From a virus: DNA of 32,534 bases. Below the pieces are notes generated by a model that had not been told where the DNA came from, made no database searches, and saw nothing but the letters and a program-made list of their open reading frames with translations. Made by a program: the position numbers and the translations under genes. The stretch lies in the IMG/VR virus record IMGVR_UViG_3300035510_000237. One strand, given 5' to 3'. Positions within the stretch are counted from its first letter, which is position 1, and every line of letters starts with the position of its first letter. Shown piece by piece: positions 3,769 to 31,885 of the stretch.

Positions 3769-3789
3769 TTAAAAAAAGGAGAAAATATT

Positions 3790-4734: not shown

Positions 4735-4753
4735 TTAACCTTGAGGTGGCATA

Positions 4754-4900
4754 ATGAAGGGAAATAATTATAAAAAGGAAAGAACTTCATTATGCCACTA
4801 TTGCGATTATTCATGTCGCAAAGGGCATAAATGTAAATATTATAAAAAGTATGTGAAAAGTAAATTTTGTAAGAAACGGAGAAAATATAATGGCAATTGA
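4754..4900 (+). CDS. small basic Cys-rich peptide (48 aa), zinc-ribbon-like
   Basis: RBS GAGGTGG, ATG at 4754. Reads MKGNNYKKERTSLCHYCDYSCRKGHKCKYYKKYVKSKFCKKRRKYNGN. Its TGA at 4898-4900 overlaps the Sak4 start at 4890. Confidence 0.35.
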   Translation: MKGNNYKKERTSLCHYCDYSCRKGHKCKYYKKYVKSKFCKKRRKYNGN

Positions 4901-6640: not shown

Positions 6641-6661
6641 CTGGCTTCAAAATATGTTGAT

Positions 6662-9075: not shown

Positions 9076-9339
9076 AGTATTTTACTTCTTGTTAAAGATG
9101 AAGATTTGGAAGCTCTTGAACCAGTTTTGTCGGCAAATGTCTTTGACAAACCAACAATTAAAATGTCTGTTTATAAAAATAGACGAGGTAAATATAAGGG
9201 TGTTTATTTATGGTGTAGAGCTGATTTGGGAACCTGTAGAATAAATCCTATGTTTTGTACCACCTGGGATTATGAAGTAATAAATGTAAATAATATTCGT
9301 ATTATTGTCGATGGTGACAATGAACAAAATTGGAATTAA
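9076..9339 (+). CDS. dnaB: DnaB-like helicase, exon 2 (5' boundary approximate)
   Basis: Reads ...SILLLVKDEDLEA...KNRRGKYKGVYLWCRADLGTCR, which aligns to the DnaB C-terminus ...DADIVAFLYRDDYY...KQRNGPVGTV-L-F. TAA stop at 9337-9339. The track ORF beginning at TTG 8926 is intron sequence read in the same frame. Confidence 0.6.
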   Translation, partial: SILLLVKDEDLEALEPVLSANVFDKPTIKMSVYKNRRGKYKGVYLWCRADLGTCRINPMFCTTWDYEVINVNNIRIIVDGDNEQNWN

Positions 9340-12681: not shown

Positions 12682-12697
12682 ATTTTAATTGAGGAAT

Positions 12698-12991
12698 ATG
12701 AGATTACAGATGTACAACAATATTATTTCTGATATTGATAATGACTTTTTGTAGCCAGAAGAGGAGGAAGTGGATAATCTATATACTTGTGATGAATTGT
12801 CTCAAATTATTATAGATGCTATAAATGCTTGGGAATCTATTAAACCCACTAGTGAGGATTTAATAGATGCTTTAGCGACATTGGGAGATTGCGGTTATCC
12901 CTTATCCATGTAGGACACTACCGAGGCAATAAAGAAAGTTAATTAGGCATTAGATTCTTTATTGCCTTCTCTTGAAACTTCTACTAGCTAA
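12698..12991 (+). CDS. hypothetical acidic protein (97 aa, 3 TAG)
   Basis: RBS GAGGA, ATG at 12698, TAA at 12989-12991. Three in-frame TAGs. Confidence 0.4.
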
Positions 12992-16103: not shown

Positions 16104-19100
16104 GTGGTTAATATTTCAGAAAGATTTTTTCCCGGTTCGTTACATAATCATACGCAATATTCTAATCTCCGATTAAGAGATTGTATTATTAAAGAAAATG
16201 ATTTAATAGATTATGCAATTAAATTGGGACATGAAGTTGTTGCAATTACAGACCATGAGAGTGTCAGTAATGCAGTTAAAGTACAAAAATATTATAATAA
16301 AATTAAAAAAGAACACCCTGATTTCAAAGTTATATTAGGCAATGAGATTTATTTATGTAGAAATGGCTTAACTAAAGACACTTTTATTAAAGGTGAAGAT
16401 AGTTATTGGCACTTTATTTTGTTGGCTAAAGATGCTATTGGCCATCAGCAAATTAGAGAAATTTCTACAAAAGCTTGGTATCGCTCTTGGATGACTGGTA
16501 AAATGCGGCGAGTGCCTACATATTATCAAGACCTTGAAGATATTATTGGCGCAAACCAAGGTCATGTAATTGGCTCAACTGCTTGTCTTGGTGGTTTTTT
16601 ACCTTCATTAATTAATAAATATAAAGCGGCTGAGAATGAGGAAGAAAAAGATTTAATTCTAAACCGTATCCATGTTTTTTGTGACTATATGGAGAATAAA
16701 ATCTTTGGAAAAGGAAATTTCTTTTTTGAATTGCAACCCTCTGATTCAGAAGAACAAACTTATGTAAATAGTTTTTTAATTACTCTTTCTAAAGAATTAA
16801 ATATTCCATATATCATCACAACTGATAGCCATTATTTAGCTAAAGAAGATAGACCAATCCATAAAGCTTATTTAAATGCGCAAAACGGTGATAGAGAGGT
16901 TGATGCATTTTATGCAACAACTTATATGATGGATACAGAGGAATTAGAAAGCTATTTAGATTTAACTGAAAATGATTTGGAAGTAGCCTATCAAAATATC
17001 AAAAAAATAAAAGATATGTGTTCTGATTATGACTTACAAAAGTCTCTAAAAATTCCTCAATTAATGTGGAAAAAACCTGAATCTTTAATTCATCCAAAAG
17101 CATATTATAATAAAATCCCTTATCTTCAAACTTTTGTTGATTCAGACTATTATGGAGATAATGTCTTAGCGCAGCATATTGTAGATAGGTTGTTTTGGGA
17201 TGAAACTCTTCAAAATCAAGCTTCTTATGACGCAATAGAAGAATGCTTAAAAATGACTTGGGAATCTTCTGTCGTGAATAAAACGCATTGGAGTGCTTAT
17301 TATTTAAACCTTCAAAAGATAATTGATGTTTGTTGGGAAGCTGGAAGTATCGTTGGGCCTGGCCGAGGAAGTGGTGTAGGCTTTATTTTGCTGTATGTAT
17401 TAGGAATTACACAAATAAATCCCTTGCGCGAGACTACTAAAACATTCGCTTGGCGTTTTCTTAATCCAAGTCGTGTATCTGTTCTTGATGTAGACTTTGA
17501 CATTGAGGGCGGCAGACGCCCGCAAGTATTGGCAAAATTTAGAGAAGTATATGGTGAAGATCGAGTAGCTAATGTTATTACTTTTGGAACCGAAAAATCC
17601 AAACAAGCAATCTTAACAGCAGCCCGTGGCCTTGAAATGGATAATAATGATGCGCAATATATTTCATCTTTGATTCCAGCAGACAGAGGTATTACTAGAA
17701 CTTTACATCAATGTTATTATGGTGATAAAGAAAATGATTATGCACCAATAGCATTGTTTGTTAAAGAGATGAATAATAATCCTGAACTTTGGGAAATCGC
17801 TCAGAAAATTGAAGGATTAGTTTGCCGCATGGGTATTCATGCAGGTGGTGTTATTTTTGTTGACGAGCCTTTCACTAATTCAACTGGATTAATGCGCGCG
17901 CCTGATGGAACAATTATCACAGCATTTGACCTTCATGATTGCGAAGCAGTAAGCTTAATTAAATATGATGCTCTTTCTGTTGAAGCAGAAGATAAAATTC
18001 ATATTTGCTTAGATTTGCTGTGTGACGCAGGACATATCCAAAGACAAAATACTCTAAAAGAAACTTATGAATCAGCTTTAGGCGTTTATAATCTCGAAAG
18101 AGATGACCCTAAAATGTGGGAAATGGTATGGAACCATAAAATTCTATCTTTGTTCCAGATGGAAAAACAAAGTGGAATCCAAGGTATTGCCCTTACAAAA
18201 CCTAAAAGCGTTGAGGATTTAGCGCACTTAAACTCTGTTATTCGTCTTATGGCGCAAGAAAAAGGCGGAGAGCAGCCACTTCAAAAGTTTGCTAGATTTA
18301 AACATAATATTAATCTTTGGTATCAAGAAATGGATAAGTATGGTTTAACGAAAGAAGAACAAGAATTGTTGAAGCCATATTTATTAGGTTCTTATGGCAT
18401 TTGCGAGTCGCAGGAAGGCTTTATGCAGTTAGTACAAATTCCTGAGTGCGGTGGATTTGACCTTAACTGGGCAGACCGTCTACGTAAAAGTATTGCAAAG
18501 AAAAATCCAAAAGAGTTTGACCAATTAGCAAAAGAATATTTTGCTAGAGTTGAAGAACAGCAATTAAGCAAACCTTTATGTAGTTATGTATGGAACGTCT
18601 TAGTGTCTACAAGTAAAGGTTATGGCTTTAACCTAAGTCATACATTAGCCTATTCTCTTGTTGCTTTACAAGAAATGAATTTGGCTTTTAGGTATCCTAT
18701 TATATATTGGAATTGCGCTTGTCTAATTACAGATAGTGGCAGTATTGAATATGATGATATAGATATTGAAGATAAAGAAGATCAGAGTACTAACTATGAT
18801 AAAATTGCGCAGGCTATTGGTAAGATGCGCGACGCAGGCGTCGAGATTAGTTTAGTTAATATTAACGAGTCTGGCTATACCTTTATTCCGGATGAAAAGA
18901 ATAATAAGATTTGGTTTGGTTTAAAAGGATTAGTTAATGTTGGCGATGAAGTGGTTGAACAAATTATCCAAAACCGTCCATATTTATCGGTTAAAGATTT
19001 TTATTATAGAGTAAAGCCTAAGAAAAATGTTATGATAGCATTAATTAAAGGTGGCGCTTTTGATAGCTTAATGGATAGAACAGAATGTATGATTTGGTAT

Positions 19101-20024
19101 ATTTGGGAGACTTGTGATAAGAAGAGTCGTTTAACTCTTCAAAACTTACCGAGTTTAATTAAATTTGGATTACTTCCAGCTAGAGTAGAAGAAGAGATTA
19201 TGGCTTATCGTGTTTATGAATTTAATAGATACTTAAAAGCCATGTGTAAAACCAAAGACGGCTATTATAAATTAGACGAACGCGCAATTAATTTTCTTAG
19301 TGAAATAGATAAAACCTCTTTAATAAATAGCACGGAAAATGGTTCCATTTATTTTATGTCAGAAAAATCTTGGGACAAGGTTTATCAAAGATGGATGGAT
19401 GTTTTTAGAGATTGGATTAAGAGTGATAAAGATAATATCTTAATGAGCCTTAATAACAGTATCTTCCAAGAGGATTGGTGCAATTATGCAAAAGGCTCTC
19501 TGTCAACTTGGGAAATGGCATCTGTTTGCTTCTATTATCATGAACATGAATTAGCGAATGTTAATAGAGGAATGTATGGGATTGTAGATTTTTATAGCTT
19601 GCCAGAAGACCCTGTAGTTGCAAAAACTTTCTCTAAAGGCGGAAAAGAAATTAAGATTTTTAAGCTCTCTAAGATTTGCGGTACCTGTATTGCCAAAAAT
19701 AAGGCAAAAGGCACAGTTTCCCTATTGACAACCACTGGTGTTGTTGAGGTTAAATTTTCTAAAGAATATTTTTCTATGTTTGACAAACGAATCTCTCAGG
19801 TAGATGCAAAAGGGAAAAAGAAAGTCATTGAGTATAGTTGGTTTAATAGAGGCAGTATGATTCTGGTTCAGGGCATGCGCTCAGGCGATAATTTTGTCGC
19901 TAAGAAATATGCCTCTCAAGGCGGCCATCAGCTTTATAAAATTGATAAACTTGAAGATGACGGTTCTCTTATTCTTCGCACAGAGAGATATACTGGCGAT
20001 GCAGAGGAAGATGATAGTGAATAA
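16104..20024 (+). CDS. dnaE: DNA polymerase III alpha-type (DnaE-like) replicative polymerase with N-terminal PHP domain (1306 aa, no TAG)
   Basis: PHP motifs LHNHTQYSNL and AITDHES. Conserved DnaE motif GRGSGVGFILLYVLGITQINPL. The GTG start directly abuts AAGAGGG, so the start is uncertain. Confidence 0.85.
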   Translation: MVNISERFFPGSLHNHTQYSNLRLRDCIIKENDLIDYAIKLGHEVVAITDHESVSNAVKVQKYYNKIKKEHPDFKVILGNEIYLCRNGLTKDTFIKGEDSYWHFILLAKDAIGHQQIREISTKAWYRSWMTGKMRRVPTYYQDLEDIIGANQGHVIGSTACLGGFLPSLINKYKAAENEEEKDLILNRIHVFCDYMENKIFGKGNFFFELQPSDSEEQTYVNSFLITLSKELNIPYIITTDSHYLAKEDRPIHKAYLNAQNGDREVDAFYATTYMMDTEELESYLDLTENDLEVAYQNIKKIKDMCSDYDLQKSLKIPQLMWKKPESLIHPKAYYNKIPYLQTFVDSDYYGDNVLAQHIVDRLFWDETLQNQASYDAIEECLKMTWESSVVNKTHWSAYYLNLQKIIDVCWEAGSIVGPGRGSGVGFILLYVLGITQINPLRETTKTFAWRFLNPSRVSVLDVDFDIEGGRRPQVLAKFREVYGEDRVANVITFGTEKSKQAILTAARGLEMDNNDAQYISSLIPADRGITRTLHQCYYGDKENDYAPIALFVKEMNNNPELWEIAQKIEGLVCRMGIHAGGVIFVDEPFTNSTGLMRAPDGTIITAFDLHDCEAVSLIKYDALSVEAEDKIHICLDLLCDAGHIQRQNTLKETYESALGVYNLERDDPKMWEMVWNHKILSLFQMEKQSGIQGIALTKPKSVEDLAHLNSVIRLMAQEKGGEQPLQKFARFKHNINLWYQEMDKYGLTKEEQELLKPYLLGSYGICESQEGFMQLVQIPECGGFDLNWADRLRKSIAKKNPKEFDQLAKEYFARVEEQQLSKPLCSYVWNVLVSTSKGYGFNLSHTLAYSLVALQEMNLAFRYPIIYWNCACLITDSGSIEYDDIDIEDKEDQSTNYDKIAQAIGKMRDAGVEISLVNINESGYTFIPDEKNNKIWFGLKGLVNVGDEVVEQIIQNRPYLSVKDFYYRVKPKKNVMIALIKGGAFDSLMDRTECMIWYIWETCDKKSRLTLQNLPSLIKFGLLPARVEEEIMAYRVYEFNRYLKAMCKTKDGYYKLDERAINFLSEIDKTSLINSTENGSIYFMSEKSWDKVYQRWMDVFRDWIKSDKDNILMSLNNSIFQEDWCNYAKGSLSTWEMASVCFYYHEHELANVNRGMYGIVDFYSLPEDPVVAKTFSKGGKEIKIFKLSKICGTCIAKNKAKGTVSLLTTTGVVEVKFSKEYFSMFDKRISQVDAKGKKKVIEYSWFNRGSMILVQGMRSGDNFVAKKYASQGGHQLYKIDKLEDDGSLILRTERYTGDAEEDDSE

Positions 20025-20035
20025 AGGAGAAATAA

Positions 20036-20620
20036 ATGTATAATATTATTGCTCTAATGGGCAAAGCAGGCGCAGGAAAAGATGCGTTAATGAAAACTTG
20101 CCTGGCCCAACATCCTCGGTGGCATGAGATAATTAGCTATACTACTCGCCCTCCTAGAGAGGGCGAGATCGATGGCGTTAATTACCATTTTGTCACAGAA
20201 GAAGAATTTAAAGAAAAAATTAAAAATCATGAAATGCTTGAACATACTTGCTTTAACAATTGGTTTTATGGGACCAGTGAAGACAGTCTTGACAAAAATT
20301 GTTTAAACATTGGAGTCTTTAATCCATCTGGAATTATAAAAATTCAAAAAGAACAAGAACGTAGAGCCACCTATACTATGGAATATACGGATGCTCAAAT
20401 TAATTTGCAAACTTTTTATATAACTACTTCTGATAAAGAGCGTTTATTGCGCCAGCTTAATCGAGAAGAAAATCCTGATGTTAATGAGATTATACGTCGT
20501 TGGCAAGCCGATGAAAAAGATTTTCAATTATTAAATTTTACTTTTGTTAATTATACAATGCTTGACAACAGTGGTGATTTGAATGATGCCGCCTAGCGTT
20601 TGCAGGCCAATTTAGATTAA
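20036..20620 (+). CDS. gmk: guanylate kinase-like nucleoside monophosphate kinase (194 aa, 1 TAG)
   Basis: P-loop GKAGAGKD and guanylate-kinase signature TTRPPREGEIDGVNYHFV. The TAG at 20594-20596 extends the ORF to TAA at 20618-20620. Confidence 0.65.
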
Positions 20621-20630
20621 TTGTTTTATC

Positions 20631-20659
20631 TCAAAACACAAAATATAGTAGACGACTTA
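20631..20659 (+). promoter_or_regulatory. possible promoter (TTGTTT-17-TATAGT)
   Basis: Weak match upstream of nrdD. Confidence 0.25.
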
Positions 20660-20689
20660 AAACAAAACACAAGATGGAGGTATCTATAT

Positions 20690-22918
20690 ATGGCTAAAAT
20701 CATTAAACGTGATGGTTCATTGGCTACTTTTGATAAAGATAAAATCATAAATGCTATTAACAAAGCATTTATCGAAATAGATGGAACTTTATATGAAACT
20801 GATACTGCAAAAGATATTGCCGCAGATATTGAAGATAAGGTCTTAGAAAGTTCTGCAACTATAACAGTTGAAACTATTTAGGATTGGGTAGAAGATTATT
20901 TAATGGCTTCCGATAGAAAAGATGTCGCAAGGTCTTATATTCGTTATCGTTATAAGAAAGAAGTTGTAAGAAATCTTCATAGTGATTTCTTTGATGCTAT
21001 TGGAGAAAAACTTTCAGCTAGTAATGTCCAAAATCAGAATGCTAATGTAGATGAACAATCTTTCGGCGGGCGCATTGGAGAAGCCGCAAGTGTAATGACA
21101 AAGAATTATGCTTTGACTCAAATAGTTTCTGAAATGGCTAGAAAGAACCATGAAAATAATGAAATTTATATTCATGACTTGGATAGTTATGCTGTCGGTA
21201 TGCACAATTGTTTGTCAATTCCTTTTGATGATTTGCTCGCCAAAGGATTTAATACCAGACAAACAGATGTGCGGCCAGCCAATAGCGTAAATACAGCTTT
21301 CCAACTTGTTGCAGTTATTTTCCAGCTTCAATCTCTTCAGCAGTTCGGCGGCGTGAGTGCTACTCATATTGATTGGACTATGGTCCCATATGTAAGAAAG
21401 AGCTTTTATAAACATTATGCTAATGGTTTAAAGTATTGTGAACATCAAGAAAAATATATTGATGGATTTACGAGCGAAATGTCAATACATGATAGTGCGT
21501 ATTATGAATATAGCCCATTGGCATATGACTACGCCATGGATATGACAGTTAAAGAAATCTATCAAGCAGTTGAAGGTATGTATCATAACCTCAATACTCT
21601 TCAAAGCAGAAGTGGCAATCAGTTGCCTTTTACTTCTATTAACTATGGTACGTGCACTTTGCCAGAAGGTAGGATGATAACTAAGGCTCTTCTTGAAGTC
21701 TCTCTTGAAGGACTTGGAAAGCTTCATAAAACTTCTATTTTTCCATGTGGAATTTTTCAATGTATGAAAGGTGTAAACCGCGCACCTGGCGACCCTAATT
21801 ATGACTTATATCAGCTAGCATTAAAATCTACAGCACAAAGATTATACCCTAATTACGCGAATGTTGATTGGAGCGGTAATGCTGGCTATGATATTAACGA
21901 TCCTAGAACATACTTCTCAACGATGGGTTGTAGGACCGCCAATGGCTGGGATATTAACGGTTTTGGCCAGCTTAAAGACGGTAGAGGCAATATTTGCCCA
22001 GTTACTATTATTATGCCAACGTTGGCTATGGAGGCAAAAGAAATGGCTTCTAATAGTGATTTTCAAGTTGAGCCTGAAAAAGCTATAATTCGTTCTTTTA
22101 TGACTTTACTTGATGCAAAAATCTGTGAAGCTAAGGATATGCTTCTGGAGCGTTTTAACTGGATTTGCGCGCAAGACCCCTCTAGTGCAAAGTTTATGTA
22201 TGAGAACAATGTAATGGCTGGTTATGTTCCTGAAGAAGGAATTAAAAGCGCGCTAAAACATGGCACTTTAGCAATTGGACAACTTGGTTTGGCTGAGACA
22301 CTTCAGATTCTTGTCGGCTGTGACCATACAGAAGCAAAAGGCATGGAATTAGCTAAGACGATTGAACAGCTATTCAAGGATAGATGTGCTCAGTTTAAAG
22401 AAGAATATCATTTAAATTTTGGTGTATATTATACCCCAGCAGAAAATTTATGCCATACGGCTTTAAAGAAATTTAAAAATAAATATGGTGTAATTGAAAA
22501 CGTATCTGATAAAGATTTCTTTACTAATAGTATTCATGTTCCTGTATGGAAGGAAGTTAGTCCTTTTGATAAAATTGATATTGAAAGTCAACTAACTGGA
22601 TATAGTTCTGCGGGCTGTATTACTTATGTTGAGCTAGATACAAGTGTAAAGAAAAATTTAGAGGGACTTGAAACCATTGTTAATTATGCTATGGACCATG
22701 ATATACCATACTTCGCTGTAAATACAATTAATGACACTTGTTTAACGTGCGGATATACAGATGAAATAAATGATGTCTGTCCTATCTGTGGAGGAACAAA
22801 AATTCAACAATTACGTAGAGTGACTGGATATTTGACAGGTTCGTATAAAGATGCTTTTAACAAAGGTAAGATCCAAGAAACCGAAATGCGAGTTAAACAT
22901 ACTGGGAGACTCGAATAA
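20690..22918 (+). CDS. nrdD: anaerobic ribonucleoside-triphosphate reductase (class III RNR; 742 aa, 1 TAG)
   Basis: N-terminal ATP-cone MAKIIKRDGSLATFDKDKIINAINKA. C-terminal zinc ribbon CLTCGYTDEINDVCPICGG and glycyl-radical motif RRVTGYL. The TAG at 20879-20881 fuses the track ORFs. The ATG at 20690 follows GGAGG. Confidence 0.85.
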
Positions 22919-23604
22919 TGGGTGTTATATATAAATATGAAAATAATATCAACCATCATATTTATATTGGGCAAAGTGTAAATTTAAAAAAGAGGATTAG
23001 AGAACACAAATGCGCGTTCTCTAATCCTAATAACCCAGATTACGACTTCCCAATTCATCGAGCATTAAGAAAATATGGAGTTGAAAATTTTACTATTTCT
23101 ATCTTAGAAGAAGTAGAAGATAACGCACTTGATGAAAGAGAAGTATATTGGATTGCTTATTATGATTCATACAAAAATGGATATAATGCCACCCCTGGAG
23201 GACAAAACGGAGGAAGCTATAATGGGAAAGAAGTTTGTTTATATGATTTAAATGGTAACTTTGTAAGAAGTTATAAAAATGCTAAAACAGCTTGTGAAGC
23301 AATAAAAGTTTCTTATTCTACAATTTAGCAAGTTTTACATCAAAAAAGACCGACCTGCAAAGGCTATTAGATAAAATATAGAGATGATAATAGAGAGATA
23401 AAAAAGTTTAAATCTCGTCAAGGAGGCGCTATACCTATTTATTAGTTAGAAAAAAATACTAATAATATAATTAAAGAATGGGATAGCGCACAATAGGCCG
23501 CTAGGGAATTAAACTTAGACGCTTCTACCATTACAAAATGTTTAAAAGGTAAATTAAAAAGTCATGGCGGTTATAGTTGGAAATATAAGGAGGAATAGAA
23601 ATGA
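22918..23604 (+). CDS. free-standing GIY-YIG homing endonuclease (I-TevI-like) with C-terminal NUMOD/HTH region (228 aa, 5 TAG)
   Basis: GVIYKYENNINHHIYIGQSVNLKKRIREH reads YIGQS with Gln as CAA. C-terminus ...LNLDASTITKCLKGKLKSHGGYSWKY. The start overlaps the nrdD stop (TAATGG) and its TGA overlaps the nrdG ATG. Confidence 0.75.
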
Positions 23605-24080
23605 GATACGCGGGAATTATATATAACGACTTGGCCGCTGCCCCTGGAATATGTGTAACTTTTTTTACTCAAGGATGTAACCGGCATTGTTTAAATTGCC
23701 ACAATCCTGAGACTTGGGATTTCTTTGGTGGGAAAGAGTTCAGTTATGAAACAATAGCTGATATAAAGCAAGCTCTTCGAGCAAATGGAGTTAAAAGAAA
23801 CTTAGCCATTATGGGCGGAGAACCTTTATGCGAAGATAATTTGTTTTTAACGAACCTCGTTATAGAATCAGTGAAAAAAGATTTGCCCGACACGAAAGTC
23901 TATATTTGGACAGGATATACTTATGAAGAATTAATTTTAGAGGAAGGCTCTAGTTCTCTTTTAAATAATATTTTAAGTAATACAGATTGCCTAATTGATG
24001 GGCCATATATTGATAGCGAGAGAGATATTACATTGCATATGCGAGGCTCTCGTAATCAAAGAATTCTTTATAAAGGTTAG
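23601..24080 (+). CDS. nrdG: anaerobic RNR activating protein (radical-SAM)
   Basis: Reads GICVTFFTQGCNRHCLNCHNPETW and an ...IMGGEPL motif. Confidence 0.8.
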   Translation: MRYAGIIYNDLAAAPGICVTFFTQGCNRHCLNCHNPETWDFFGGKEFSYETIADIKQALRANGVKRNLAIMGGEPLCEDNLFLTNLVIESVKKDLPDTKVYIWTGYTYEELILEEGSSSLLNNILSNTDCLIDGPYIDSERDITLHMRGSRNQRILYKG

Positions 24081-24089
24081 GATTTTTAA

Positions 24090-24734
24090 ATGACAGAAGA
24101 AAAAAGACAGCTCCTACGCCGATAGCATAAGGAACTATTAGAAAAGCTTTCTGAAATGGAAGAGCCTTATGAAGAGACAATAGCAAAAGTTATTGCTGCT
24201 TATATTAAAGATTATCCTAAAAATTGGGCTAATGGCGTAGATGAATTAATTGATATTTTTTATGAAGAATTAACTGAAACTATTTCTATTACAATAAAAG
24301 AAATCAAAAACATTTATACTAGAATAAAAGATTTTGATATTAAAGATGTATTTGATTTAACCTATAATGCAGACGGTCAAACCTTAAAAGCCAGAATCCA
24401 AAAGCATTGGGATTAGACAGAAGAAGCTTTAAATAAACTTGATAAAAATAAGTTTGACATTAGAGATTAGCTACTTAGACAAATTTTAAAAATTTTAGAT
24501 AATGAAACTAAAATTGTTTAGAATAAAGTTATCAAGAATAAAGTCGAGCCTTTAGCAGATATTATTGTAATTGAGGGCGATGGCACAGATGAATGTAGTG
24601 ATTGGTTCGGAGAGCATCCAGTAGGAGAGGTAGAATTACCTCCTTACCATCCTGGATGTACGTGTTCTTTTTATTACGACCAAACAGATGACCCAGATGA
24701 CTTTCAAGACTTAGATTTGGAGCCAAACGCTTGA
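24090..24734 (+). CDS. hypothetical protein with C-terminal PPYHPGCTC motif (214 aa, 4 TAG)
   Basis: ATG at 24090. C-terminus CSDWFGEHPVGEVELPPYHPGCTCSFYY resembles the Mu-F/SPP1-gp7-type HPNCRC motif. TGA at 24732-24734 overlaps the next -35 box. Confidence 0.45.
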
Positions 24735-24759
24735 CTTTTATCAAAAAATATGGTATAAT
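24731..24759 (+). promoter_or_regulatory. sigma70 promoter (TTGACT-17-TGgTATAAT)
   Basis: TTGACT at 24731-24736 and TATAAT at 24754-24759. Confidence 0.5.
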
Positions 24760-24796
24760 TTAAATAGAAAATATAAACGACAGGAGAAAAATTCTA

Positions 24797-25288
24797 TTGA
24801 TTCGAGCAAATACATATGCTGAGATGTTAGCGCTTCAAAACCATGAAGAAGGCGAAGTCTGTTACTGCGACGATGTAGAAAAAGGTTATATTTTTCAAGA
24901 TGGCGAATGGCATGAGGCAGTAGTCAGTTCTAAAGGCGTTGAAATGACTCTTCATGATATTAATAAAAGTATTATTGGATAGCTGCCCGCCTATAATAAG
25001 CATGATTTGAAAAAGGCCAAACAGACAATTCAAAAATGGCAAGCGCAGGATAATGGTGAATTTTATCTGCTATATGGCAAAGAGATTAGTTACTTTACTT
25101 TATTTAAAAAGGATATTGTTGAAGATTCCTTTAGCGATGTAGTAATGGAAATCGTAACTGAACTTGGTCCAATTCATACTATTGAGGAAACTGACCATGG
25201 TATTGAATTTTGGATTAAAGTGGATGATGAACTAATTTATTTTCAGCTATTTAATTATGATATGGGGATTGTGACATATGGAAGCTAA
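24797..25288 (+). CDS. hypothetical protein (163 aa, 1 TAG)
   Basis: TTG start 9 nt after AGGAG. The TAG at 24980-24982 fuses the track ORFs 24797-24982 and 25007-25288. Confidence 0.45.
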
Positions 25289-25535
25289 TAAAGAAAAAGA
25301 ATTGGTTTGTTATGTTAATATGTTTGATGCAGAACAGACTATTACGACCCCAAGAGGGACTGTAAAAGTTCCTAATGGTTTTTTAGCAGCACTTTTACCG
25401 GATATTTGTTTTAAAGAAAATGTTTCTAAAGTCCATTTATTCGGAAATGAACAATACATTAGTGGCATCGTAAAGAATGCCCGTGAAACCGCAAAAACAA
25501 CTTATAATAAAGAAATTGAAATTGAGGTAAATTAA
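25278..25535 (+). CDS. hypothetical protein (85 aa)
   Basis: Track ORF. Overlaps the previous stop. Confidence 0.4.
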   Translation: MEANKEKELVCYVNMFDAEQTITTPRGTVKVPNGFLAALLPDICFKENVSKVHLFGNEQYISGIVKNARETAKTTYNKEIEIEVN

Positions 25536-25536
25536 T

Positions 25537-25782
25537 ATGTCTAAGTATTTAGTTAGTACAACAGAAGTTTATAGAGTAGATAGTGAGCCAGAAGTAGAGA
25601 ATTTTATTGCGGAAGCCAAGGCAGATGATACTTACGAGCTTACGAAGTATAATTGCGAATATAAAGAGTTAAAGAGTAAGGGCGAAGTTTATGATACTTA
25701 TTACAAGGTAACTCTTACTAAAGCCTTTAACGATATTAAAGAGCCTGGATGCCAGGTTGATATTTCTTATGAGGTGAATTAA
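25537..25782 (+). CDS. hypothetical protein (81 aa)
   Basis: Track ORF. Tightly packed with its neighbours. Confidence 0.4.
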   Translation: MSKYLVSTTEVYRVDSEPEVENFIAEAKADDTYELTKYNCEYKELKSKGEVYDTYYKVTLTKAFNDIKEPGCQVDISYEVN

Positions 25783-26208
25783 TTGAATATTAAGCTTTTA
25801 ACAGATACGGCTAAAGTCCCTTATCGTGGGTCTGCGGCCGCAGCTGGTTACGATATTTATGCAGATGAAACTATTATGATTCTTCCTGGTGAGGTATCTA
25901 AAGTTCATACAGGAATTGCTACTGAACTTCCTGAAGGAACATTTGCAGGCATTTATCCTAGAAGTGGCCTTGCTACTAAGAACGGTCTGCGGTTGGCTAA
26001 TTGCGTGGCTGTTATTGACTCAGATTATCGTGGCGAATGGCTAGTTCCAATTTATAATGATTCTAGTTCTCCTCAGATTATTTCTAAGGGCGACCGCATT
26101 GCGCAGATGGTTATTCATAAATATGAGACTGTTGACTTTAATGTTGTTGATAAATTAAACGATACTATTAGGGGTGCTGGTGGTTTTAATTCCACTGGGA
26201 TAAGATGA
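25783..26208 (+). CDS. dut: dUTP diphosphatase
   Basis: All five dUTPase motifs are present: AGYDIYA, RSGLA, VIDSDYRGEW, RIAQMV and RGAGGFNSTG. Confidence 0.85.
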   Translation: MNIKLLTDTAKVPYRGSAAAAGYDIYADETIMILPGEVSKVHTGIATELPEGTFAGIYPRSGLATKNGLRLANCVAVIDSDYRGEWLVPIYNDSSSPQIISKGDRIAQMVIHKYETVDFNVVDKLNDTIRGAGGFNSTGIR

Positions 26209-26696
26209 TAAAACTTTTAGCCCTTGACTAGGCTTCAAATGTTTCAGGTTGGGCTGTTTTTGAAGATGGAAAATTATTGGAAAGCGGCACCTTTACCGCT
26301 AAAGGAAAGGACCTTGGCGAACGTCTTTATGATATTCGCCAAAAGGTCTCCAACCTTATTTCTAAATATAATATCAATTATTTAATTTTTGAAGATATTT
26401 AGCTTTAGGGAAATGTAACCGGTAATGTCCAAACTTTTAAAGCCTTGGCAGAAGTATTTGGAATTATTTATGAATTGGCCACTGAATTAAATATTCCCAA
26501 CGAGGCAGTATTAGCTAGCTCTTGGAAATCTACTCTTGGCATTAAAGGCCGATAGAGAGCGGAACAAAAGCGAAATGCGCAAAAGTACGTCCTGGAAAAT
26601 TATGGCAAAAAGGTATCTCAAGATGAATCAGATAGTATTTGTATTGGCACACACTATTTCCTAAAGCAATAGAAAGTCTTTGACTGGTCGGATTAA
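26205..26696 (+). CDS. ruvC: RuvC-like Holliday-junction resolvase (163 aa, 5 TAG)
   Basis: Reads MIKLLALD(TAG)ASNVSGWAVFEDGKLLESG and DESDSICIGTHYF, with the catalytic Asp/Glu pattern of RuvC/YqgF-fold resolvases. It overlaps the dut stop. Confidence 0.65.
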
Positions 26697-26770
26697 GTAA
26701 AAGTATCCCCTTTATTTTTTATTATCCTTTAGATAGGGTAAATTTTTCGACAAATAAGGGGGAGATTACA

Positions 26771-27205
26771 ATGGTGGAATTTGTCATAAAGTACTGGGTT
26801 GAATTTGTATTTGGTTTAATCGTTACTGGCGGAGGTTTGTTCTTAAAACGCTTTTGGACTTTGACCAAAGAAAATTAGCAAAAACAATAGGACGAATTTT
26901 ACAGTAAAATTAAAGAAGAAATCAACAAAAGTACTGAATAGTCCCAAAAGGATGATAGTCTCTTACAGGGTGAAATTGATGACTTAAAGACAGCCATGGA
27001 AGCTCTACGCAATGGAGTATTATCTCTCTAGGGTAGATAGTTCAAAGCAGAATGTATGAGACTCTTAGAAGAGGGACACGAAATCACGATTGAAGAATTT
27101 AAAGACCTAGATAAAGACCATGATGTGTATAACGCTTTAGGCGGAAACCATAATGGCGATCACCTTTATGACTTAGTAAAGAAAAAAGTGGAGAATAAGT
27201 TGTAA
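26771..27205 (+). CDS. single-pass membrane coiled-coil protein (144 aa, 6 TAG)
   Basis: RBS AAGGGGGAG. N-terminal TM helix VEFVIKYWVEFVFGLIVTGGGLFL. TAA at 27203-27205. Confidence 0.45.
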
Positions 27206-27212
27206 AAAAAAT

Positions 27213-27250
27213 AAGGGGACTTAGTAATTAAACTAAGTCCCCTTATTGTG
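27213..27250. terminator. bidirectional rho-independent terminator
   Basis: 13-bp perfect stem AAGGGGACTTAGT/ACTAAGTCCCCTT. The T-run on the minus side is TTTTTTTT and a weaker one lies on the plus side. It separates the convergent genes at 26771 (+) and 27251 (-). Confidence 0.7.
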
Positions 27251-27736
27251 TTAGGTATTAATCTTTGTGGCTAAAATTGCTATTTTCTTCTGAAGAAGTT
27301 GCTTTTCTTCAGCAGTAGCTTCTTTAATCATTTCCATTATATCGTCGGATAAATCTTGTGCGTATTTTTCCAGCTCTTTCATTTCCATTTCTGCGTCATG
27401 TGCCATCTTAGCTTCCATATATTTTGTTCTAGTGTGCGGGCTTTTACCCATCATAGTAGCATCAGTATGGTCGTGGCTAGTTCGAGAAGTAGTATCATAA
27501 GAAGTATAATGCTCACGGGTCATGCCTCCCTCACGGCAAGACTGGTGGCAATATATTTCAGATTCTGAACCTTCTTCCATTGCCCTAATAGCAGTATGAT
27601 AATACATAGCTTCTTCTAAGTCTTTTATCATATCTATTGCTTCACCAAGTTCTTTGGCGTCCACGCAATCTAAATGGCTCATTTCAGTAGCGACTTTTTC
27701 CATTAAAGTCTTTTTCATCCATTTAAGTTTTTCCAC
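27251..27736 (-). CDS. hypothetical Met/His/Glu-rich protein (161 aa)
   Basis: RBS AGGGTGG 7 nt before GTG at 27736. An alternative ATG lies at 27718. No TAG. Confidence 0.45.
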   Translation of the reverse strand: MEKLKWMKKTLMEKVATEMSHLDCVDAKELGEAIDMIKDLEEAMYYHTAIRAMEEGSESEIYCHQSCREGGMTREHYTSYDTTSRTSHDHTDATMMGKSPHTRTKYMEAKMAHDAEMEMKELEKYAQDLSDDIMEMIKEATAEEKQLLQKKIAILATKINT

Positions 27737-27738
27737 TG

Positions 27739-28158
27739 TTAAGCCACCCTTTCAATAATAATATTTGCGTGCTCCACACTAATGGACTAATCTCCTACAT
27801 TCATGACACTAATCTAAGAGCAGCAGTTTTTTGGTACATCCACAAATACAGAAGAAGAAACATTATTAAAATCTTCTACATCTCCTGGAGTGGAAATCAT
27901 AGTTGTAGATACTATTGGCTCACCATCAATCGCTATTGCTAAACTGGCAGGACCGGCAGTCCCACCAGTAGGTATAGCAATATTGGCACCAAAAGTAATA
28001 CGGTATCTAGCTCGACACTATTGCGTCAAGCCACGTAAAGTTACTAAGCCGCTACCAACCCGATGTAGCATACTACAGTTGCCTGGAATTACAACTGTAG
28101 TAAATAAAATATCTTGATTAGTAGAGACTGTCTGAACAGCATTACTTGTAAGCTCCAT
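27739..28158 (-). CDS. hypothetical beta-rich protein (139 aa, 3 TAG), possibly a C1q/BclA-C-terminal-like domain
   Basis: RBS AAAGGAG 9 nt before ATG (plus CAT 28156-28158). Reads ...GANIAIPTGGTAGPASLAIAIDGEPIVSTTMISTPGD. Confidence 0.45.
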
Positions 28159-28175
28159 AATCTTAATCTCCTTTA

Positions 28176-28889
28176 TCAAGCAGCGCAATTACAGCCGTTA
28201 TAGGTATAACCATATAACTGAGATGCTGGAAATGCTGGAATAGGGGTTGGGCGCAGTTGATTGACCAAATACTGGTTCTGCGAGCACTGTGAAAGCTAGA
28301 AGTTTGCCCCTAAAAGTTCAGTATTCTTAGCTTCTAAACGGTCGCGTAAATCCTGCATAGTATTAGAATTAATCAGAGCGCGAGTAGCTTCGCCTTCCTG
28401 ATGAATAGCGTTAGTGATATCGCAGGTATTCTGCGCAGCAGCATAACGGTTCTCCAGGATATTTTGCTTTACATCACAGCAACAAGATTGCATAGAATAG
28501 CGATTGTCTGCTAGATTTTGATTTACAGTGTCAAAGCCCTGCGCAACAGAACTAAAGCCTGTACACAAATCACGCTGTAAATTTCCAAAATTTGTTAAAA
28601 GAGTAGTATTATTGCTGTAGAATCCATCACATAAACCCTATGAGAGTCCACGAACACCATTTTCAACCTACTGGAAATTCATATCTTGCGCGAGTTCGCC
28701 TCTTGTTAAAGCTCCCTAAGCAGATGAATTATTGCTGCCCCAGGCACCATTACCGCCCCAGCCCATAAACATGAACAGGAACAATATGATAATCCACCAT
28801 GCGCCTCCATTACTCCCACCGAAACCATCTCTATCGCCAGTTACTGCGGCGAGGTCAGATAAAGAATAACCACTTGCTTCGTTAAACAT
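28176..28889 (-). CDS. membrane protein with Gly/Trp-flanked TM helix and Cys-rich C-terminal region (237 aa, 4 TAG)
   Basis: RBS AGGAGG 9 nt before ATG (plus CAT 28887-28889). TM segment GGAWWIIILFLFMFMGWGG resembles the YjcZ-family TM motif. Cys clusters CCCD and YNGCNCAA. Confidence 0.45.
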
Positions 28890-28915
28890 AAAAAATTGCC
28901 TCCTAAAAATATATA

Positions 28916-29149
28916 TTATTTAATCCCAAGCTATTGCTTAAAGGAATTAAATTCGGTATCAAAATCTACGCCTTTCTATTGGCATAGATTACGAGCAATT
29001 TGTTCAATCTCCGCAGTTTTATTATTCTTGGCTAAATTTAATAAATTACTTCCTAATGGAGTATCTGCCATTTGAGATTCTAACATATTCAACACAAATT
29101 GTTGAGGATTACTGCCCATCTACAGAAGGGTCATTGGATTTATATTCAC
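28916..29149 (-). CDS. hypothetical small protein (77 aa, 3 TAG)
   Basis: RBS AAGGAGGG 6 nt before GTG (plus CAC 29147-29149). TAA at plus 28916-28918. Confidence 0.4.
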
Positions 29150-29161
29150 TTATATCCCTCC

Positions 29162-29539
29162 TTAAAAATTATATTCCGTAGATTCATTTGTAGAAGGAAT
29201 CTACGGAAGGGCAGATTTGATCTGGTTAATGGCTGACTCAAACTCTTCTCTTGTTATGTAATTGCCCATATTATTATTTATTTGTTCAGTTGTGGGCATT
29301 TCCTTTAATTCATACATATTGAAAAGCGCTGAGCCATCCATCCCAATCTGTTTAGTATAAATGCGTTTATTTGCCAAATCTGGAAAAAAGAATACTGACC
29401 CATCAAAATCAATAGTGGTGGCTCTTACTTCGTCCAATGAGGATACTGGCCTACCTTTTAAATTATACTATAGCTATTGTTGATAAGTGTTCTATGTCCG
29501 GTATGGCGTTTGTTGCTATGGATAGTAGTTAGTATACAT
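29162..29539 (-). CDS. hypothetical protein with Gln/Tyr-rich N-terminus partly encoded by TAG (125 aa, 5 TAG)
   Basis: ATG (plus CAT 29537-29539) after AAGGAA. Reads MYTNYYPQQQTPYRTQNTYQQQLQYN..., where four of the Gln codons are TAG. An alternative ATG lies at 29581. TAA at plus 29162-29164. Confidence 0.4.
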
Positions 29540-29659
29540 TTTATTTCCTTCTTTCTAACAGTTCTTCTCTAACCCTTCCATAGCTATATAAAAAATAAAT
29601 GGGATAAATTTACTAATTTTGTCCTAAAAACTTAAAAAAATTTTTAATAAAATATAACA

Positions 29660-29716
29660 GAAAAATGGGGAACCGCTCTACCTTTAAAGAGCGGTTCCCC
29701 ATTTTATTTTTTATTA
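29660..29716. terminator. bidirectional rho-independent terminator
   Basis: 13-bp perfect stem GGGGAACCGCTCT/AGAGCGGTTCCCC with T-tracts on both strands. Confidence 0.75.
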
Positions 29717-30106
29717 AGAAACCTTTAATTGATTAACCTGTGACTCAATTTTTTGATTGATATAAGTCTCTAAATCTCCAACAGCAGAAGATAAATAGCT
29801 TTGTGCCTCTTGGCTCAGGATTGTCATAACTGCTTGATAAGTTTGCTAGAAAGCAGCTTTTTGAGCTTCTGTGTCAAAACTACCTTGAGCTTTTAAAGAA
29901 TTTACATATGTTTGATTTGTAGCAGTTACACATTCTGTAATTGTCTAATCTAACATCTCAATATATTTCTTAGTTGTTTCATCCTCTATATTAGAAGTAA
30001 CTTCCTCAGTCTTAGAATTTATCCATTTAACAAAGAAACTCGTTAAAATGGTTAAAAGTGGAATTAAAACAATCTCAAAAATTTCAGTGATTAATTCTTG
30101 TGCCAT
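29714..30106 (-). CDS. holin-like protein: N-terminal TM helix plus long coiled-coil tail (130 aa, 2 TAG)
   Basis: RBS AAGGGAGAG 6 nt before ATG (plus CAT 30104-30106). Reads MAQELITEIFEIVLIPLLTILTSFFVKW..., followed by a Q/E/K-rich helix. Confidence 0.45.
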
Positions 30107-30284: not shown

Positions 30285-31811
30285 ATTTCAAACAAAGTAA
30301 TTTTACTTGAATAGGGTGGAATTAACACCAATGCAGTTACTTTATCAGGCATTACTGTCTCAACATTACCGACTAAAACAGTATATGAATACGGTGATTC
30401 TTTTGACCCTACTGGCATGGTAATTACTGCGACTTATACTGATGGTACTACTGCAATAGTATCTAATTATATTTATACACCAACTTCTGTTTTAAATACA
30501 ATAGGAAGTTAGGCAGTCCTTATATCTTATAGCGAAAACGGATTAACTTATCTTAATAGTGTAACAATTACAGTAAACCGTAAAAAAATTTCTATACCTA
30601 CTTGGAAATCAAATTTAACTTATAATGGTAATACCTAGCATGTAGATGCTGAACAATATTGGAATAATTATGATTCTAGTAAAATGGTTATTAGTGGAAC
30701 TACATCTGGCACAAATGCTAGTACGTATTCCGCTTCATTTACACCAGGAAGTAATTATTAGTGGTCTGACGAAACAACTTCTGCAAAATCTGTAAATTGG
30801 ACTATTAATAAGGCTACTGGATATTTATATATAAATGGAAGTGTCAGTAGCCCAACAGTAAGTTTAGATTCTAGTAATTCTAGTTACTCTGCTACCATAA
30901 CAGGTTCAGGTACTATTAGTTATACACCTACTTCAGTGACTGGATTAACTTTAAGTCTTAGCAATGGGACTTTCACTGTTAAAGCTACAGCTAATGTTTC
31001 CTCACAAATTATTACCATTAAATGCGCGGCAAGTACCAATTATACAGCCCCTGCAAATTTAACTATTACAGTTAGCGCAAATGTTTGGTCATGGGGAGAT
31101 GAAACTGCAGTAGGCGACGCTGACTGGTGGGCTAGACTAAAGTCTTGGGCTTCTACAGCTTCTGCCACAGAAAGATCTGATTGCGTTGGTAAGAAAAAAT
31201 TAGTCAGCTTATCTACCTCAGTGCTTGGCGCTAATGCGGCTACAATGATATGTATTGGAGCTGACTAGGATGGGTCAAATACTTTAACCTTTTAGACTGC
31301 TGGAGTATTGCCCAATACAACTGCTTTTAGCTCTTCTAGTGCCGTTTGGATAGGTTCTACTGCTAGAACTTTATGTTAGAATTTCTATAATTATTGTAGT
31401 GCAAAAAATTCAATAAAAACTATTAGTAAAGGCACTTGCGCATCTACTAATAGTTCTAAAAGTGGCACAGCAACTTATAATGATGAAACAGTTTTTTTAC
31501 CATCAGAGGCTGAAATGGGTTTAGATTCTTATTCTAGCTTGACTTATAGTAATTCTACTACAAGTAACGCCGAATGTACTAAAGGATTAAAATTTAAATA
31601 TAGTTATTATAGTTCTAATACTACAAGAATTAAATATGTTATGAGCGCAGATGGTACAATTGGTTCAACAGCTGGTTATTATTGGGAGAGGTCGCGTTAC
31701 TACAACTCGGGCAACTCGAACATTGTTTGCCATGTCTACGGTGATGGATCTGCGGTCAACTCCGGCTACTACAACAGCTGTTACTTGGCCCCCGCTTTCG
31801 CCATCGGCTAA
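30285..31811 (+). CDS. DGR target (variable) protein: bacterial Ig-like domain plus Ser/Thr-rich region plus C-terminal variable repeat; putative receptor-binding tail fibre (508 aa, 7 TAG; apparent ATT start)
   Basis: GGAGGA at 30272-30277 is followed by ATT ATT, and no in-frame ATG/GTG/TTG occurs upstream. An Ig-like domain VTLSGITVSTLPTKTVYEYGDSFDPTGMVITATYTDGTT follows. Seven TAGs interrupt the frame, and the gene ends at TAA 31809-31811. The last 36 codons are the VR. Confidence 0.7.
31690..31798 (+). repeat. DGR variable repeat (VR)
   Basis: 109 nt. 92 of 109 positions are identical to the TR at 32392-32500. All 17 mismatches lie opposite TR adenines. The 3' end TTACTTGGCCCCCG is shared with the TR (IMH-like). 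Confidence 0.85.
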
Positions 31812-31885
31812 TACCAAAAGAATCAAACTCGCCGTTAATAAAAAAATCAAACAAACTTAACCATTTTAACAAAGAAAGGTAATAT

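Follow-up and report, generated by a model that had tools for sequence, protein, structure and literature searches.

Uneven use of glutamine-coding TAG in replication and accessory genes of a recoded phage

Genes packed side by side in the 32,534-nucleotide stretch of viral DNA analysed here (IMG/VR record IMGVR_UViG_3300035510_000237, further designated as the window) differ sharply in their use of in-frame TAG. The initial annotation described this codon as absent from core replication enzymes and dense in homing endonucleases and accessory genes, and offered two readings: either recoded stops gate expression until a suppressor tRNA is available, or the TAG-free genes were recently acquired from standard-code genomes. 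What, then, keeps TAG out of one set of genes and admits it to another?

TAG as a glutamine codon

The window is a segment of a phage that reads TAG as glutamine (genetic code 15). Gene calling that let TAG be read through, followed by annotation with Pfam and PHROGs, raised the coverage by open reading frames from 56% under the standard code to 88%. All 40 gene ends are TAA or TGA, none is TAG; TAG-rich genes carry 61 in-frame TAG and not a single in-frame TAA or TGA, whereas out of frame TAA and TGA are each commoner than TAG. Aligned with relatives, the TAGs of the window meet glutamine at 270 of 638 positions, histidine being the next (41), and they occupy conserved Gln columns, for instance in LALD-Q of RuvC. 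The phage carrying the window is large, with contigs of relatives of ~100–175 kb. No tRNA of any kind, suppressor included, turned up, whether in the window itself, in the 24-kb neighbourhoods examined for recoded relatives or across 63.5 kb from the closest long relative, and an Rfam search gave no match; tRNAs of non-suppressor type are present in five non-recoded relatives.

TAG-free and TAG-rich genes of the window

In total 78 in-frame TAG were registered among 9,871 codons (18.75% of Gln codons), and their uneven spread was confirmed: between-gene heterogeneity came to G=124, a value attained in 0 of 20,000 simulations (their mean was 44, their maximum 81), and remained at G=94 (again 0 of 20,000) given the number of Gln codons in each gene. 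The pattern runs through the whole window, so that the range 16104–27205 initially assigned to it covers only part of the counted genes.

The TAG-free genes, all on the plus strand, are those of the YorF-like protein (3790..4734, 0/314; PF27337 YorF on an identical product), DnaB helicase, primase, DnaE and dUTPase. Exon 1 of dnaB (6641..7900, ~420 codons; Pfam DnaB, DnaB_C) is collinear with residues 1–420 of the uninterrupted DnaB in the related lineage L013, and exon 2 (9061..9339) was found by tblastn to residues 418–501 of that protein. DNA primase (9547..10647, 0/366) matches phrog_47 (4.8e-37), dUTPase (25783..26208, 0/141) matches Pfam dUTPase (2.8e-29), and the YorL-type DNA polymerase III alpha subunit DnaE (16104..20024, 0/1306; 37–38% identical to SPbeta YorL) spells glutamine 51 times as CAA or CAG and never as TAG. 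The four families from DnaB to dUTPase comprise 2,366 codons without TAG (probability by chance 7e-9), and recounting returned the same zeros for DnaE, primase, dUTPase and DnaB exon 1 (0/416).

Absence from core replication enzymes was nevertheless slightly overstated, with TAG present in the AAA_24 ATPase, the RecJ-like exonuclease and NrdD. The ATPase (4890..5885, plus; Pfam AAA_24 1e-38) has one TAG at codon 38, immediately past Walker A, which is also present in the 100% identical contig L054; since its homologues in relatives contain no TAG (0/1862), the window gene is an exception. The RecJ-like DHH exonuclease (11053..12732, plus; Pfam DHH, DHHA1, RecJ_OB) belongs to an intermediate class, with 6.8 TAG per 1000 codons in recoded relatives and two TAGs in 559 codons here, at positions 81 and 543, one of them within the DHH domain; the former count of 1/542 ended at the second TAG. 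Single TAGs are found in guanylate kinase (20036..20620, plus; Guanylate_kin 2.1e-24) near the C-terminus at codon 187 of 194, in the ATP-cone of the anaerobic ribonucleotide reductase NrdD (20621..22918, plus; NRDD 6.5e-144), where 1/742 was reproduced and becomes 1/765 if the gene begins at an upstream TTG, and at codon 160 of 162 in the NrdG activase (23601..24089, plus; Fer4_12 8.7e-33, Radical_SAM).

TAG makes up ~20–46% of Gln codons in homing endonucleases, RuvC, the membrane protein, holin and their neighbours, as well as in tail-like and lysis genes of a close relative. The LAGLIDADG endonuclease ORF (7984..8805, plus; LAGLIDADG_3 7.5e-9 and HTH) lies within the ~1.16 kb interruption of dnaB behind its own Shine-Dalgarno AAGGAG. 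The GIY-YIG/NUMOD endonuclease (22918..23604, plus; GIY-YIG, NUMOD1, I-HmuI_NUMOD-like) is free-standing at the nrdD–nrdG junction and overlaps both neighbours: its start shares TAATG with the stop of nrdD, and its stop runs into the nrdG start. The RuvC-like Holliday-junction resolvase (26205..26696, plus; RuvC 3.6e-6, phrog_827 2.7e-20), whose ATG overlaps the dUTPase stop (ATGA), has its first TAG at codon 9, right behind the catalytic Asp. For these three genes the counts of 5/273, 5/228 and 5/163 came out as before. A transmembrane/coiled-coil/GIY-YIG protein (925..1914, plus; GIY-YIG 5.6e-10) and a transmembrane protein (26771..27205, plus; phrog_4257) kept their lengths of 329 and 144 codons with 7 and 5 TAG instead of the 8 and 6 reported initially. 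A protein without family match (24090..24734, plus) has 4/214. A strong bidirectional terminator-like hairpin at 27210..27247 closes the plus-strand array according to a consensus scan only, in which promoter-like and terminator-like elements showed no excess over shuffled sequence. Beyond it five small minus-strand genes (27251..29581) carry 0, 3, 4, 3 and 6 TAG and are followed by the holin (29714..30106, minus, 2/130; phrog_13712 7.7e-31). The count of 5/125 for the Gln-rich minus-strand gene was reproduced (6/139 from the first ATG). The Ser/Thr-rich surface-type protein (30417..31811, plus; phrog_37900), a putative DGR target first counted as 7/508, holds 8/519 from stop to stop, or 6/464 if counted from the one start codon it has.

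Neither GC3 (rho 0.24, p 0.13) nor gene length (rho −0.12, p 0.46) correlates with in-frame TAG in the window genes, and neither accounts for the split. How conserved a protein is does not predict its TAG share (rho −0.27, p 0.21); dUTPase and AAA_24 equal RuvC in rate of divergence, yet remain TAG-free. Out of frame, core genes show 20.9 TAG per 1000 codons in each frame, and TAG-rich ones 21.6. Synonymous codon usage of TAG-free and TAG-rich genes is alike (RSCU r=0.94; 0.949±0.018 in random partitions) and their GC3 values, 0.258 and 0.263, are indistinguishable. Along genes TAG is placed uniformly (KS p=0.70), so its early placement shows no sign of optimisation, and the enrichment of TAG may reflect simple tolerance instead of gating as an adaptation.

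The same split in related lineages

Nine independent recoded lineages were distinguished by mutual DnaE identity below 90%, and in all of them DnaE is TAG-free (0 TAG in 10,312 aligned codons, 385 of them for Gln). Seven core families together contain 13 TAG in 18,823 codons, 10 of the 13 coming from one heavily recoded lineage; dUTPase has 1 TAG in 1,049 aligned codons. Per 1000 codons this gives a graded series of 0.7 for the core, 5.1 for RecJ/NrdD/NrdG/RecD/Gmk and 11.6–30 for the remaining classes, among them homing endonucleases (11.6), homologues of the transmembrane/coiled-coil/GIY-YIG protein (11.7) and the pooled homologues of the minus-strand block, holin and 26771 transmembrane protein (13.1). 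RuvC is the most TAG-dense family (38 TAG in 1,269 codons, 46% of Gln codons), carrying TAG in 8 of 8 recoded lineages and, in 8 of 9, showing a higher TAG share than the rest of the non-core genes.

In the 63.5 kb of L013, GyrB, GyrA, LigA and DnaE all have 0 TAG, and TAG is common in tail-like and lysis genes: large minus-strand tail-like genes hold 14–35 each, and the lysis enzymes amidase and NAGPA 4–7. The homologue of the 26771 gene adjoins the holin there. Exceptions in this lineage are TAGs in primase (6), DnaB (4) and NrdD (14), and one GIY-YIG endonuclease is a counter-case, with 0 TAG among 21 Gln codons. The clade mixes standard-code, TAG-recoded and TGA-recoded members, and the sister lineage L026, where TGA encodes Trp, is an independent replicate with another stop codon. 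Its in-frame TGA occur in RuvC, the RecJ-like protein, NrdD, YorH and the homologue of window gene 24797–25288, and none occurs in DnaE, DnaB, primase, AAA_24 or dUTPase. These data show that purifying selection purges TAG from DnaE, DnaB, primase, dUTPase and YorF, and in relatives likewise keeps AAA_24, gyrase and ligase TAG-free.

Code switch, competing explanations and known systems

Early-translated genes probably stay in the standard code and later ones are recoded, TAG being kept out of the former by selection. TAG-free replication genes would be translated by unmodified host machinery, with TAG still terminating, before the code switch. In genes whose products would not be required from the onset of infection, TAG behaves as an ordinary Gln codon. 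Such a switch is usually made by a suppressor tRNA; since none was found, its timing can only be inferred. Since tightly packed co-directional arrays mix TAG-free genes with TAG-rich ones, some with overlapping stops and starts, temporal control would act at translation, gene by gene, rather than by separate transcription units. Before suppression sets in, endonucleases and resolvase embedded in the arrays would then be made only as short, truncated peptides, RuvC terminating at codon 9. The scheme is not clean, as AAA_24 of the window would require read-through just past Walker A. As far as the nucleotide sequence allows one to judge, the initially proposed gating is supported: avoidance of TAG is frame-specific and gene-specific, kept in nine diverged recoded lineages and mirrored by TGA in a sister lineage.

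It is unlikely, though conceivable, that translation cost explains the split whatever the time of expression. Suppression would always be incomplete and TAG therefore purged where truncation or low yield is most harmful, from long or dosage-critical enzymes such as DnaE. That no gene is longer than that of DnaE and none more strictly free of TAG, that TAGs lie along genes without positional design and that classes form a gradation instead of two groups all fit this view. However, length has no effect in the window, very long tail-like genes of L013 (1,018–1,594 codons) hold 16–35 TAG each, NrdD of this lineage tolerates its 14, and dUTPase, only 141 codons long, is TAG-free across lineages.

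A historical origin, with TAG-rich genes as old residents and TAG-free ones as recent arrivals, is very improbable. Donors would exist, because the clade includes members with the standard code as well as both recoded types, but the TAG-free genes form a conserved syntenic SPbeta yor-like module found in all 26 related lineages (DnaE identity 45–77%), and DnaE of the nine recoded lineages differs by 25–55% at the protein level, leaving ample time for synonymous-site change. Codon usage and GC3 do not separate the classes, and the demonstrably mobile genes, polymorphic in presence between near-identical strains, are instead the TAG-bearing endonucleases; a strain 97–99% identical has two additional GIY-YIG insertions in DnaE, which is still TAG-free. 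An artefact, in which TAG density follows composition, length or evolutionary rate or TAG-rich ORFs are decaying pseudogenes, is scarcely credible at all: decay is frequent among homing endonucleases and some of the TAG-rich ORFs lack a functional assignment, but frames are broken by TAG alone, never by TAA or TGA, out-of-frame TAG is equal, GC3, length and conservation are uncorrelated, TAG sits at conserved Gln columns and domain architectures are recovered full-length.

Selection linked to a code switch, which we prefer, has been published for recoded gut phages, where early genes are standard-code and late or lysis genes recoded (Borges et al. 2021, preprint 10.1101/2021.08.26.457843, which cites crAss-like and Lak phage reports as earlier cases). 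Those phages resemble the window in reading TAG as Gln, in replication machinery without the recoded codon and in preferential recoding of a homing endonuclease inside an early gene; structural, lysis and transmembrane genes rich in the recoded codon and related clade members using codes 11, 15 and 4 are further common traits, and a suppressor tRNA was undetected in 40% of TAG-recoded genomes. The part of the preprint consulted here makes no mention of preferential recoding of RuvC (the word "resolvase" occurs 0 times), and we do not know a matching TAG/TGA partition in sister lineages to be described there. The gating model, intron homing endonuclease in an early gene included, is thus already published, and the sole new detail here is that RuvC is recoded consistently and preferentially.

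Unlike the phages of that preprint, the window clade has the SPbeta yor-like DnaE replication module; compared with a GenBank phage set it had no near match, the best DnaE match being 38%. Bacillus phage SPbeta keeps YorF, AAA_24, YorH, DnaB, primase, RecJ-like and DnaE/YorL in the same order in yorF–yorL, with ~38% DnaE identity to the window and nothing seen pointing to recoding; beyond this module the window has introns or endonucleases and nrdDG. In T4, homing-endonuclease genes located in early or middle transcripts are translated only late in the infection cycle (Edgell, Gibb & Belfort 2010, PMC2988022). There, as in the window, endonuclease ORFs lie in or between early–middle genes of nucleotide metabolism (nrd, introns) on shared transcripts, and overlap the upstream stop (UAAUGA at nrdA/mobE, TAATG at nrdD/endonuclease). 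The block differs: T4 relies on hairpins sequestering the ribosome-binding site and on late promoters, whereas in the window in-frame TAG awaiting the code switch would play this part.

Genetic code and gene content of the recoded segment

The window is 32.5 kb long and contains about 34% G+C. Under code 11, 56.5% of its length lies in open reading frames of 100 codons or more; the figure is 87.9% if TAG is read through and 59.4% if TGA is. Thus, TGA readthrough gives almost no gain in coverage, and only readthrough of TAG mends the fragmented genes. About 40 genes were called in this way, none of which is terminated by TAG, all of them ending with TAA or TGA. In alignments with relatives, positions occupied by TAG in the window hold Gln or TAG in 270 of 638 cases (His comes second with 41), the substitution profile of TAG codons is that of CAA/CAG codons, and TAG is found in conserved Gln columns of RuvC. 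Decay of TAG-rich genes into pseudogenes was rejected, since only TAG interrupts their frames: they contain 61 TAG and neither TAA nor TGA in frame, while out of frame TAA (281) and TGA (145) both exceed TAG (130). Judging from the sequence, this segment evidently belongs to a phage using genetic code 15, with TAG reassigned to Gln.

Pfam and PHROGs profiles assign a plus-strand array to replication and nucleotide metabolism. It begins with YorF, AAA_24, YorH, DnaB with a LAGLIDADG ORF inside, primase, RecJ-like exonuclease and RecD-like helicase, and continues with DnaE/YorL, guanylate kinase (Gmk), NrdD, a GIY-YIG/NUMOD endonuclease, NrdG, dUTPase, a RuvC-like resolvase and a membrane protein. 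Beyond it lies a convergent block on the minus strand, with a holin at its end. The scan for promoters and terminators gave counts not above those of shuffled sequence, its noteworthy finds being limited to two bidirectional terminators, both strong, and a handful of good sigma-70-like sites. Two long, perfect bidirectional terminator-like hairpins with stems of 16 and 18 bp (27210–27247 and 29662–29705, respectively) lie on either side of the first five genes in this block.

Several genes of the window are split or unusual. The RecD-like helicase (13411–14594) has a frameshift within Walker A, with residues 1–31 encoded at 13411–13503 and the rest in another frame from 13506, which may reflect a sequencing error, decay into a pseudogene or programmed frameshifting. 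ORFs 2221–2586 and 2786–3340 correspond to the N- and C-terminal halves of phrog_6721 (profile positions 10–83 and 84–215) and therefore represent one gene split by about 200 nt, the copy in the related locus L018 being contiguous. The region 30417–32359 encodes a Ser/Thr/Asn-rich protein with a Tyr/Asn/Ser-rich C-terminus, followed by a 157-aa helical protein. These two could be a putative target of a diversity-generating retroelement and its Avd-like accessory protein, as the initial annotation assumed; the template repeat and reverse transcriptase are absent from the window.

Partition of in-frame TAG codons

The per-gene TAG counts of the initial annotation, according to which these codons are lacking in core replication enzymes and dense in homing endonucleases and accessory genes, were reproduced within one codon per gene after the genes had been called anew. 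In total, 78 in-frame TAGs were registered in 9,871 codons. Their heterogeneity among genes (G=124) was not reached in any of 20,000 simulations (mean 44, maximum 81), nor was it with the number of Gln codons fixed for each gene (G=94, 0/20,000). DnaB, primase, DnaE and dUTPase together have no TAG in 2,366 codons, 89 of which encode Gln (P about 1e-8). Avoidance concerns only the coding frame: out of frame, TAG occurs 20.9 times per 1000 codons per frame in TAG-free core genes versus 21.6 in TAG-rich ones. A density of TAG tracking only AT content or gene length, which the initial annotation named as the outcome contrary to a functional partition, was not observed, since this density is independent of both GC3 (rho 0.24, p 0.13) and length (rho −0.12, p 0.46). 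Explanations of the split by composition, length, conservation or codon usage were each tested and each rejected.

The partition is graded rather than binary. From DnaE onwards the plus-strand array contains 0 TAG in DnaE, 1 in Gmk, 1 in NrdD, 5 in the homing endonuclease, 1 in NrdG, 4 in the gene at 24090–24734, 1, 0 and 0 in three small genes, 0 in dUTPase, 5 in RuvC and 5 in the transmembrane protein. This array is co-directional and gap-free, with intergenic distances not exceeding 74 nt and several overlapping stop and start codons. The holin has 2 TAGs in 130 codons, and the RecJ-like exonuclease has one within its DHH domain. In AAA_24 (4890–5885) TAG occupies codon 38 (nt 5001–5003) directly after the Walker A motif and is followed by ATG. 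The same codon is present in L054, a 100% identical contig that comes from a different run, and AAA_24 homologues of other recoded lineages have no TAG. Enrichment of TAG at 5′-ends, which might signify designed early termination, is absent, and the codons are placed uniformly along the genes.

For comparison we used 48 related IMG/VR loci around DnaE, mostly from contigs of about 75–174 kb supplemented by many shorter fragments. They represent 26 lineages at <90% DnaE identity, in nine of which TAG is clearly a sense codon. In these nine lineages DnaE has no TAG in 10,312 codons along with 385 CAA/CAG codons for Gln, and seven core families pooled have 13 in 18,823 (0.69 per 1000), ten of the 13 coming from a single heavily recoded lineage. 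The frequency is 5.1 per 1000 for RecJ-like, NrdD, NrdG, RecD-like and Gmk proteins (55 in 10,821), 11.6 for homing endonucleases (15 in 1,296), 13.1 for the right-hand block (50 in 3,809) and 29.9 for RuvC (38 in 1,269), where TAG makes up 46% of Gln codons. The share of TAG is unrelated to the evolutionary rate of the family (rho −0.27, p 0.21), and dUTPase and AAA_24, having divergence equal to that of RuvC, are yet TAG-free. The few TAGs registered within stop-to-stop DnaE ORFs of non-recoded loci proved to be genuine stops or to precede the start codon.

The sister lineage L026 (IMGVR_UViG_3300028591_000266), whose DnaE is 60% identical, has TGA rather than TAG recoded, with Trp as the new meaning, so that the clade holds codes 11, 15 and 4. 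In-frame TGA was found there in RuvC, RecJ-like, NrdD, YorH and one more gene, and was not found in DnaB, primase, AAA_24, dUTPase or DnaE. Hence this partition has arisen with another reassigned codon as well. Based on these comparisons one can conclude that the partition is genuine, has strong statistical support and has been preserved in evolution by selection acting at single-gene resolution.

Homing endonucleases and a wider genomic view

Both endonuclease ORFs inserted in or between presumed early genes of the window are recoded, with 5 TAGs in 273 codons of the LAGLIDADG ORF inside DnaB and 5 in 228 codons of the GIY-YIG ORF between nrdD and nrdG. The interruption of DnaB that carries the former (7901–9060, about 1.16 kb) separates exons corresponding to residues 1–420 and 418–501 of an uninterrupted homologue, the junction being collinear and loss-free. 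It gave no match to group I or group II RNA models of Rfam even at E<=1 and, having no Rfam group I core, is not filed here as a group I intron. In two related loci, L015 and L039, DnaB bears a GIY-YIG ORF at another site. DnaE of L008, a strain 97–99% identical to the window, contains two insertions (L008 positions 2297–3276 and 3761–5019) missing from the window, at sites that match window DnaE near 17445 and 17950. Each carries one GIY-YIG ORF, with 5 and 1 TAG, between TAG-free DnaE exons. Such presence/absence polymorphism is typical for mobile introns; Rfam models of group I introns matched neither insertion.

Exact-protein look-ups for the window genome yielded, apart from short contigs, just a 26-kb contig inside the window, and the wider view was taken instead from the closest long relative, L013, whose 172-kb contig was walked to 63.5 kb. 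In L013 TAG is missing from GyrB, GyrA, NAD-ligase (LigA) and DnaE; it occurs 6–9 times in each of four endonuclease-like genes, 4 times in an amidase, 7 times in a NAGPA/SPOR enzyme and 14–35 times in each of the large minus-strand tail-like genes. One GIY-YIG gene of L013 (7243–8196 of the 63.5-kb merged segment) has no TAG among 21 Gln codons, which means that recoding of endonucleases is not invariable. It sits among topoisomerase (gyrB/gyrA-like) genes of a genome that is otherwise heavily recoded.

Proposed gating of expression by recoded stops, and known systems

That recoded stops block expression until suppression becomes possible, which is the first of two readings offered by the initial annotation, fits all the sequence evidence, while the timing is what we infer; it is the accepted model and has already been published for recoded gut phages. 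Alternation of TAG-free and TAG-rich genes in a gap-free array would imply that temporal control is translational and gene-specific. Replication genes are depleted of the recoded codon, as expected by the model of Borges et al., in which early genes keep the standard code and late genes are recoded. Structural and lysis genes are rich in it as far as the sampled ones show, namely the holin and the tail-like, amidase and NAGPA genes of L013. One passage of Borges et al. (10.1101/2021.08.26.457843) describes an intron endonuclease in an early gene as preferentially recoded and hence a late product only, and endonucleases inserted in early genes seem to follow this rule here, with the one exception in L013.

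For most TAG-rich genes, tolerance of TAG combined with drift is as good an explanation as adaptive gating, and the uniform placement of TAGs along genes is in favor of the former. The RuvC-like resolvase (Pfam RuvC 27.4 bits at a cut-off of 22.2; phrog_827, 2.7e-20), whose acidic catalytic columns LALD, (F/L)E(D/G)I and DE.DA are conserved in relatives, contains TAG in all eight of eight lineages, exceeds other non-core genes in TAG share in eight of nine (sign test p=0.04) and is nearly the sole TAG-bearing gene near DnaE in four. The conserved Gln right after the catalytic Asp (LALD-Q) is often encoded by TAG. This excess in RuvC alone hints at positive selection for the codon. The second reading of the initial annotation, recent acquisition of TAG-free genes from standard-code genomes, is rejected, as these genes form the conserved syntenic core of all lineages, codon usage is alike in both classes (RSCU r=0.94, with 0.949±0.018 for random partitions; GC3 0.258 versus 0.263), and the genes that come and go between L008 and the window are TAG-bearing endonucleases.

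Beyond gating as such, it is conceivable, though we consider it rather unlikely, that positive selection favors recoded stops as a translational safety lock on enzymes that cleave DNA, going beyond mere tolerance in late genes. RuvC would then have been recoded first and most heavily in the replication region, with homing endonucleases next, and nuclease genes could sit in the operons of early replication genes, with codons of the two even overlapping, while their products appear only after the code switch. Sister lineages would have come to this same lock by way of different stops, TAG and TGA. That the resolvase is recoded preferentially, under either codon, is the one modest new detail, and RuvC and the endonucleases offer concrete cases in which to test whether recoding sets the time at which dangerous nucleases are made.

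ARAGORN registered no tRNA gene at all in the window, and neither a suppressor tRNA(CUA) nor a code-change gene was found there, around the 48 DnaE loci of the 26 lineages or in the 63.5 kb walked in L013; the ARAGORN search covered the window and viral-contig loci L001–L048, L056–L069 and L073–L083, most of the genome lying outside this sample. Rfam revealed no suppressor tRNA in the window and five loci. According to a passage in Borges et al. (10.1101/2021.08.26.457843), a suppressor is detected in only 40% of TAG-recoded genomes. Five non-recoded loci (L016 at 22276–22361, L003, L017, L019 and L040) carry a tRNA of 84–86 nt that has the class II shape, with its long variable arm, and the UUG (Gln) anticodon, adjoining tRNA-Leu(CAA); three of the five also have Met and Thr tRNAs.

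The phenomenon itself is already described and the current picture of phage recoding is unchanged. What is added is an independent, statistically clean case of partitioned stop-codon recoding, recurring with either recoded stop, in a clade that has an SPbeta-like replication module and for which no close relative turned up in the GenBank phage collection that was searched (no near-identical phage was matched when 13.5 kb were compared by megablast with the GenBank-derived INPHARED). For annotation it means that such contigs need code 15, otherwise half of the genes fragment. At the protein level YorL of SPbeta is the best relative of window DnaE (37–38% identity), and the gene order of the window mirrors the yor module of that phage. 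In phage T4, endonuclease ORFs lie within early nrd and td transcripts and are translated only late (PMC2988022). There mobE overlaps the stop codon of nrdA, and the window endonuclease likewise overlaps nrdD (TAATG).
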